DNA from: Acidobacteriota bacterium
GTDB taxonomy: Bacteria > Acidobacteriota > Vicinamibacteria > Fen-336
DNA length: 64,000 nt
Direction: 5' to 3'
Assembly: GCA_032127875.1 (NCBI GenBank)
Contig: JAQBHI010000158.1
Span: 4,626-68,625 of the forward strand
Position numbers and translations under genes: made by a program. Within the stretch, counting starts at the first letter, position 1, and each line of letters begins with the position of its first letter. Shown piece after piece: positions 30,565-30,759 of the stretch. Under the pieces are notes generated by a model. It did no database searches. It worked only from the letters and a program-made list of their open reading frames with translations, and was not told the origin of the DNA.

Positions 30565-30759
30565 TTGGCGGCCCCGAGCATTCTCGACCTCGTCGGGGAC
30601 ACCCCGCTGCCTCTCAGCCGCTACGCACCCGAGGGCGGGGCGGCGATCTACGCCAAGCTCGAGTTTCTGAACCCGCGCGCAGCACCAAGAACCGCGCGGC
30701 CGCTTTTCCCCGACGGCTTCGAGCGCTATCTCGGCAAGGGCATCTTCGAGAGTCCATAA
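30565..30759 (+). pseudogene. In-frame internally deleted remnant of a cysteine synthase / cystathionine beta-synthase (CysK-fold) gene.
   Basis: The 64-aa ORF is ILDLVGDTPLPLSRYAPEGGAAIYAKLEFLNP (the CysK N-terminal block) fused to ...PDGFERYLGKGIFESP (the CysK C-terminal FGERYLST..LF block). The roughly 250 residues in between are missing. Confidence 0.55.

Follow-up and report, generated by a model that had tools for sequence, protein, structure and literature searches.

A probable relic of a CysK/CBS-fold gene in front of an intact cystathionine gamma-lyase-family gene in a member of the Acidobacteriota

The segment considered here lies between the gene of a signalling protein and an intact gene of the cystathionine gamma-lyase family, within a 64-kb stretch of DNA (64,000 nucleotides, all of it referred to as the window) from an uncultured, soil-dwelling, Vicinamibacteria-like member of the phylum Acidobacteriota. 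It carries a 64-codon open reading frame (ORF), which a preliminary description made from the letters alone had taken for the ghost of a cysteine synthase or cystathionine beta-synthase gene. The features of this slot are listed below in plain order of position; PALP denotes the fold family PF00291, and L numbers denote related loci.

27907-30486, plus strand: gene of a PAS-GAF-PAS-GGDEF-EAL signalling protein, the left boundary of the slot (Pfam EAL, 262 bits; GGDEF, 184 bits; PAS; GAF)
30483-30512, plus strand: promoter-like element TTGACC-N18-TATCCT, overlapping the stop codon of the EAL gene
30525-30564, plus strand: initial 13 codons of the former PALP gene, beginning with the ancestral ATG at 30525-30527 (alignment with L167, L168 and L169)
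30565, plus strand: lesion 1, a 1-bp insertion causing a frameshift after codon 13 (pairwise alignment with L167)
30565-30759, plus strand: 64-codon ORF from TTG 30565 to TAA 30757-30759, open by accident across the remnant (ORF list)
30566-30675, plus strand: block from the N-terminal part of the former gene, …APSILDLVGDTPLPLSRYAPEGGAAIYAKLEFLNP (aligned to 54 intact orthologues)
30611-30612, plus strand: lesion 2, a 3-bp deletion by which one codon is gone, TPL[L]RL (alignment with L167)
30676-30700, plus strand: relic of the PLP-binding motif, ancestral GGS(T/V)KDRAA (three-frame translation; alignments with L001, L002, L004 and L167)
30678-30679, plus strand: lesion 3, a 1-bp deletion in the Gly codons that open the PLP-lysine motif (alignments)
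30700-30701, plus strand: lesion 4, the junction of a 719-bp deletion (alignment with L167)
30701-30759, plus strand: C-terminal block of the old gene, …LFPDGFERYLGKGIFESP, with the stop codon (structure, orthologue and L167 alignments)
30760-30856, plus strand: 97-bp spacer between relic and lyase gene (RNA fold; alignment with L167)
30857-31993, plus strand: intact gene of a PLP-dependent lyase of Cys/Met metabolism, cystathionine gamma-lyase/MccB-like family (PF01053, 474.6 bits)

On the right-hand side, an intact Cys_Met_Meta_PP gene starts 97 bp downstream of the ORF, in agreement with the preliminary description, in which the two were said to adjoin. The best NCBIfam model for its product is PRK07671 (MccB-type cystathionine gamma-lyase/homocysteine desulfhydrase) with 475.6 bits against a cut-off of 594, and the gamma-synthase model PRK07811 gives 471.4 bits against a cut-off of 513. 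The gene is under purifying selection; its differences from the L167 lyase are distributed over the three codon positions as 31:19:107. A look-up of the exact lyase product with two start choices returned no record. On the left-hand side, the same EAL gene is the neighbour of the slot in L001, L082, L164, L166, L167, L168 and L170.

The product of the 64-codon ORF (30565-30759, plus strand) is MAAPSILDLVGDTPLPLSRYAPEGGAAIYAKLEFLNPRAAPRTARPLFPDGFERYLGKGIFESP. In a phmmer comparison of this peptide with all solved structures of the PDB, residues 4-41 matched CysK/CBS-fold enzymes at their N-terminus (~6-44) and residues ~44-62 at their C-terminus (~287-304), the two stretches being matched separately; the top structure was 5xw3, an O-acetylserine lyase of the MccA type (E = 2.9e-8). 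When its DNA is aligned with the start and the end of the intact L167 orthologue (957 bp), the remnant shows 85.0% identity in 234 aligned bases, far more than chance would give. That the ends of the ORF correspond to the termini of a CysK/CBS-fold enzyme, as had been proposed, is borne out by these two results. The Pfam PALP model scores only 17.1 bits with the peptide, below its gathering score of 35, and covers profile positions 2-33 of 295, while the NCBIfam models for CysK, CysM and CBS reach 11-18 bits at cut-offs of 344-510; such low scores are expected because the ORF covers a fragment. As in CysK/CysM (O-acetylserine sulfhydrylase, PF00291), both terminal blocks and the PLP-lysine motif can be aligned; unlike in these enzymes, ~77 of the ~318 codons of the old PALP gene are left, spread over two reading frames, and the PALP score stays below gathering. 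The ORF fails to encode the complete two-domain PALP fold of ~300 amino acids, ~240 codons being deleted, and no fold can form from the codons that remain.

The lesions were mapped by pairwise alignment with the PALP gene of L167 (957 bp), to which a window segment of 235 bp corresponds, from ATG 30525 to TAA 30759. Four lesions distinguish the two, namely +1 bp (30565), -3 bp (30611/12), -1 bp (30678/79) and -719 bp (30700/01). Upstream of the first, the initial 13 codons of the window, MVKTLGSVDCTRG, correspond to MPKTLNSVDLTRG in L167, where the gene is intact, and to MAKTGTS... in L168 and L169. ATG 30525, which does not share the frame of the 64-codon ORF, opens a frame of 96 codons that runs to TGA 30813-30815. 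At lesion 1, the ancestral GGC CGG GTS of L167, L168 and L169 has become GGC CTT GGC, and the apparent start codon of the ORF, TTG 30565, is made by the inserted base together with an adjacent substitution. In the N-terminal block that follows, the residues G, T, P, K, L, E, N and P that are invariant among the 54 intact orthologues have all been kept; the codon removed by lesion 2 belongs to a column that is filled (L/M/I) in 54 of 54 orthologues.

The preliminary description had placed the left breakpoint of the deletion just before the PLP-lysine region. This has to be corrected, since homology runs through the GGS(T/V)KDRAA motif (30676-30700), albeit out of frame. The motif (GGS-x-KDR) is frameshifted relative to both flanking blocks: its relic reads R-x-STKNRA(A) in the ancestral frame, with the lysine codon AAG at 30687-30689, and RAAPRTARP in the frame of the ORF, nine codons of which are its out-of-frame reading. 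Two changes in it, G->R and D->N, are specific to the window and affect columns that are 96-100% conserved among the 54 orthologues. The V->T change in the same motif was considered as a sign of decay and rejected, T being present in the intact L167 gene as well. The 719-bp deletion takes away approximately residues 60-299 of the L167 protein, that is nearly the whole catalytic core (241 residues in the comparison with L001). Microhomology at its junction amounts to a few bases at most and is ambiguous at 15% divergence, so that no deletion mechanism is claimed. The C-terminal block has kept its invariant residues (D, E, R, Y), and its last two residues have been altered on the window branch (N->S, L->P). 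This block and the N-terminal one stand in one frame only because the 1-bp and the 719-bp deletions add up to 720 bp (240 codons); for unrelated lesions, a shared frame would arise by chance in one case out of three. Of the earlier proposal that a core of ~250 amino acids had been excised in frame, the loss of the core stands (~240 codons), while a single in-frame event has to be given up in favour of four lesions, with the true start out of frame. Further long ORFs extend over the relic and the first part of the lyase gene (30465-30815 on the plus strand; 30614-31000 and 30228-30602 on the minus strand); these resemble spurious open frames of GC-rich DNA, and the first of them contains the frame of the ancestral ATG.

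In a survey with a single genome per species, the window fell among Vicinamibacteria-like Acidobacteriota whose lyases are 75-79% identical to its own, and at many loci the two blocks of the peptide match ~800 bp apart in a PALP gene of ~305-318 amino acids directly 5' of the lyase gene. Closer relatives were taken from metagenome and protein-database searches. The gene order EAL, slot, lyase, DinB, CutA, EVE, DUF6788, DivIC and HU is common to L164, L166, L167, L168 and L169, and in relatives of this kind three states of the slot are found. An intact PALP gene lies directly upstream of the lyase gene in L167, L168, L169, L170, L001, L004 and L085; its product has 318 amino acids in L167 and L169, with gene callers listing 300 for L168 and 332 for L170, and the lyases are 90% (L167) and 87% (L168-L170) identical to that of the window. 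The intact pairs are adjacent and co-oriented with 6-98 bp between the genes, of which the window has kept the second alone in intact form. The slot is empty in L164, L165 and L166 (lyase 94% identical, a level of identity also represented by assembly GCA_964442185.1) as well as in L081 (88%), where the EAL stop codon is followed by ~43 bp and the lyase ATG, and it is also empty in L082 (81%), with a different junction. The relic itself recurs in L162, a Logan contig from run ERR5010721, which corresponds to 30347-33122 (2,776 bp) and is 99.78% identical to the window, with 6 SNPs, no gaps and an identical remnant. Taken over 130 evaluable acidobacterial loci, a PALP gene is located directly upstream of the lyase gene in 48 and farther upstream in 10, and none is found in the flank in 72; the solitary state of the lyase is thus common (72/130 loci).

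With the intact orthologue as query, the best structure was again 5xw3 (4e-86), and the CysK/CBS fold of the intact protein is certain. Among the models of the family (PF00291; TIGR01137/TIGR01139), the CBS model gave it 330.8 bits and the CysK model 325.4 bits, both below cut-off. With model scores so nearly equal, the ancestral enzyme may have been either an MccA-like cystathionine beta-synthase or an O-acetylserine sulfhydrylase. The preliminary description had suggested looking in relatives for an intact CBS or CysK gene 5' of the lyase gene, and such a gene, encoding ~318 amino acids, does occupy the same slot. The notion of an operon that lost its first enzyme is supported by these syntenic relatives, and together with the homology of the peptide the syntenic orthologue also supports the description of the ORF as a gene ghost of a CysK/CBS-fold enzyme. 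Additional arrangements exist at other loci. An extra gene of ~400 codons is interposed between PALP and lyase genes in L002 (4628-6067) and L088 (203-1450), the product of which resembles, by eye, a KAS-III or type III polyketide-synthase-like enzyme, and in L084, which is nested in the L002/L088 clade, cutA and EVE genes are found directly 5' of the lyase gene instead.

The best explanation for these observations, which is held with high confidence, is that 30525-30759 represents a non-functional, recent pseudogene relic of a CysK/CBS-fold gene that was the first of an mccA-mccB-like two-gene unit. The PALP gene would have decayed by a +1 frameshift, the loss of one codon, a -1 frameshift in the PLP-lysine motif and the 719-bp deletion of the core. 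The 64-codon ORF would be a by-product of this process, its TTG codon stemming from the +1 insertion and its continuity from the combined -1 and -719 changes, and the remnant is presumably untranslated. Deletional decay of pseudogenes is a general phenomenon in bacteria. With other bacterial pseudogenes the remnant shares several disabling indels, one extensive internal deletion, a relaxation of constraint and full removal in sister lineages; it is the same in kind, and what is unusual is the resolution of the series of intact, remnant and empty slots among loci whose lyases are 87-94% identical. The remnant is, in short, an ordinary pseudogene of a known enzyme family that is unusually well documented.

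The age of the inactivation can be approached through the divergence of the retained codons. Between the window and L167, DNA identity is 86.2% in the lyase gene, against the 85.0% given above for the remnant, and the similarity of the retained blocks to their orthologues is as predicted from lyase divergence (z = -0.5 to +1.2). The blocks are no more diverged than the lyase gene predicts, which makes the inactivation recent on the scale of a ~14% divergence. When substitutions were polarised with L168 and L169 as outgroups, the window branch showed 8 nonsynonymous and 4 synonymous changes in the remnant versus 20 and 47 in the lyase gene (Fisher p = 0.021); for these codons, the L167 branch showed 3 and 6 versus 18 and 25 in its own lyase gene (p = 0.72). 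The direct comparison of the remnant codons between the window and L167 branches is not significant (p = 0.20), the relic test resting on 12 polarised substitutions. The evidence of relaxed constraint on the remnant is real, if thin. Recency would explain that all invariant residues are kept in the blocks, and so would continued constraint.

The history of the slot in the wider group is less straightforward. In the lyase tree, the window and L162 (relic) form a clade with L164 and L166 (empty) at 99.5% support, which is joined at 94% by a clade of L081 (empty) and L167 (intact) supported at 97%, with L168-L170 (intact) as outgroup. At face value this topology would mean at least two, probably three, separate losses within a small clade, and L082 and L084 represent further losses beyond it; no number of events is claimed. 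The gene trees disagree across the slot, the lyase gene (30857-31993) grouping the window with L164 and L166 and the EAL gene (27907-30486) grouping L164 and L166 with L167. Identities of the EAL gene are 90.7% for L164 and L167, 87.7% for the window and L164, and 88.0% for the window and L167. This conflict around the slot points to recombination or to very uneven rates, and the counting of independent losses by parsimony on the lyase tree was abandoned on account of the conflicting topology of the EAL flank. The empty alleles of the two lyase clades have near-identical junctions. Allele exchange by recombination is a live alternative because the EAL topology differs and because the empty junctions are so alike.

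It is conceivable, if on balance doubtful, that the slot represents a presence/absence polymorphism of an mccA-like gene which has been recombined among related Vicinamibacteria-like lineages, with the relic as a rare intermediate, the sulfur trait variable and dispensable, and the lyase acting as a stand-alone enzyme. If so, drawing cysteine sulfur from methionine or homocysteine would be an ecologically variable, dispensable trait, and the retained lyase would have a role of its own, for example as a homocysteine or cysteine desulfhydrase. As a hypothesis on the sulfur metabolism of these abundant and uncultured organisms, the mccA-like partner appears to be dispensable and repeatedly lost in Vicinamibacteria-like soil bacteria, with the lyase being kept.

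Expression of the pair, and of the lyase gene after loss of its partner, is suggested by the region next to the EAL stop codon. TTGACC-N18-TATCCT is the sole promoter-like match within 30300-31000, where 0.1 would be expected, and both hexamers are kept with their 18-nt spacing in the window, L167, L168, L169, L170, L164 and L081, while the spacer sequence varies; conservation of the -35 hexamer is in part coding constraint, as it includes the EAL stop (CGT TGA). The element probably drives the PALP-lyase unit. ATG 30525 is located 12 nt past the -10 hexamer and lacks a Shine-Dalgarno sequence, and the same is true of the PALP ATG in every intact relative (-10 and ATG compared in window 30483-30527, L167 2404-2448, L169 ~193-236, L168, L170, L164 ~3455-3503 and L081 ~57-107), a hint that the mRNA from which the first gene is translated is leaderless or nearly so. 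Where the slot is empty, the promoter-like element is brought together with the ribosome-binding site that belongs to the lyase gene. On the reading of the segment as a pseudogene relic, the lyase gene of the window would presumably still be transcribed from the conserved element 5' of the relic, and the relic would form part of a 5' leader of the lyase mRNA of roughly 335 nt; in the sister lineages, complete clearance of the slot would have fused the promoter to the lyase ribosome-binding site. A scan of 30300-31000 detected no intrinsic terminator. A hairpin after the EAL stop was considered as a terminator and rejected, being no more stable than shuffled sequences (z = 0.20). No Rfam family matched 30300-31100 at E <= 1, that is, no riboswitch or leader family and no S-box or T-box.

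The 97-bp spacer in front of the lyase gene folds at -41.4 kcal/mol (z = -2.24 versus shuffles), and a 12-bp hairpin in it (30822-30851) buries the Shine-Dalgarno sequence GAGGAG (30845-30850), seven bases before the lyase ATG. A homologous spacer follows the intact PALP gene in L167 (3403-3500), and L168-L170 have 6 bp in its place (TAG GAGACC ATG). No second copy was found in the window or in 160 loci, so the idea of a mobile element was dropped; the spacer may act in translational control or derive from an old insertion. In L004, the spacer between PALP and lyase genes (5589-5714) is a 127-bp near-perfect palindrome with repeats of the GGAAC/GTTCC type, unlike that of all other loci.

From this arrangement a regulatory role could be construed: once co-opted, the relic would serve as a translated leader (uORF) and tune the expression of the lyase. 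Translation from ATG 30525 would take ribosomes through the 96-codon junk frame to the stop at TGA 30813-30815, 7 nt before the hairpin, and terminating ribosomes could open the hairpin, thereby coupling lyase translation to the old initiation signal. The parts are in place: the frame-0 ORF 30525-30815 is present, the promoter-like element is conserved with the ATG at its leaderless-like distance, and the spacer fold, which beats its shuffles, sequesters GAGGAG. Against it, hairpin and spacer also follow the intact gene of L167, the stop codon of which is ~98 nt upstream, and so are older than the decay; moreover, the relatives with 94% lyase identity manage without any such parts, and the remnant is under relaxed constraint. 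Co-option as a leader is considered improbable.

Still less credence can be given to the 64-codon ORF as a genuine small protein assembled from N- and C-terminal CysK-fold segments. The ORF is open, both its blocks keep all family-invariant residues and their identity to the orthologues is no lower than expected. Its sole in-frame start, in contrast, is the TTG codon produced by the frameshift insertion, again without a Shine-Dalgarno sequence, its nine central codons are the PLP motif read out of frame, and the 8:4 ratio of the window branch speaks for relaxation. In the independent assembly L162, no gene was called in the interval from the EAL gene to the lyase gene. The preliminary description had allowed for relatives with an equally short ORF that is a genuine small protein; the nearest other lineages, however, have none of this sequence, and no short homologue was found, with zero short proteins in a search that is insensitive for so short a query and missed even full-length CysK. 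The exact 64-aa product likewise gave no record on look-up. That the deletion arose in assembly or sequencing, with an intact gene in the actual genome, for which the uncultured source material and the capacity of mis-assembly to yield large deletions might be adduced, is highly unlikely: the remnant is not an artefact, because the independent L162 from a different run repeats all four lesions exactly with its 6 SNPs lying elsewhere, three Logan contigs assembled from other runs are 99.8-100% identical to the window (these independent assemblies having been reached through a look-up of the DinB neighbour), the lesions lie outside homopolymers, no repeat flanks the 719-bp junction, and the additional damage at invariant codons fits real decay.

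The pair is best compared with mccA-mccB (yrhA-yrhB). In Bacillus subtilis and Clostridium acetobutylicum, mccA, encoding a CysK-fold cystathionine beta-synthase, and mccB, encoding a gamma-lyase, are co-operonic (PMC2566862). Like it, the intact acidobacterial orthologues combine a CysK-fold gene with a Cys_Met_Meta_PP lyase gene, the former being nearest to the MccA-type structure 5xw3 and the latter to the MccB-type model PRK07671. Unlike the B. subtilis and C. acetobutylicum systems, the present one belongs to Vicinamibacteria-like members of the phylum Acidobacteriota, its first gene is destroyed in the window, and the locus has no S-box, T-box or other Rfam element; neither acidobacterial protein reaches an equivalog cut-off, and the activities are putative.

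A B. subtilis mccAB mutant does not grow on methionine as sole sulfur source, owing to the missing MccA (PMC2566862), a phenotype that differs from the loss of cysteine prototrophy as such. With the first gene, the contribution of the PALP enzyme would have been lost; by analogy with MccA, this would be the formation of cystathionine from homocysteine and, with it, the use of methionine as a source of cysteine sulfur. The organism of the window has thus probably lost the transfer of homocysteine sulfur to cysteine via the PALP-lyase pair. The auxotrophy for cysteine or methionine implied by the preliminary description goes further than such a loss and would require that sulfide-dependent cysteine synthesis is missing too. 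There is no other cysK, cysM or CBS homologue within the 64-kb window, the only other PALP-fold gene of which (37724-38833) encodes a threonine/serine dehydratase.

For annotation it follows that the 64-codon ORF should not be called a gene, nor should the ORF of 116 codons in the other frame, and that the lone lyase should not be counted as a complete reverse-transsulfuration pathway in the organism of the window. Beyond this, the locus offers a worked example of deletional decay, from the intact gene through a relic with four lesions to a clean removal that re-fuses the promoter, with neighbours 87-94% identical.

Two other ORFs in the window deserve a remark. The ORF at 22675-27834 comprises 1,719 codons, of which the N-terminal half mostly resembles high-GC read-through, and its C-terminal part corresponds to a Phosphodiest (PF01663) protein of ~912 amino acids that is annotated at the same place in L166. 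At 35052-37877, a protein of 941 amino acids with AMP-binding (acyl-activating) and acyltransferase domains is encoded, the L166 and L169 orthologues of which are annotated with PF00501 and PF01553; the ORF of the threonine/serine dehydratase (37724-38833) has a mechanical start that falls within the 3' end of this gene.
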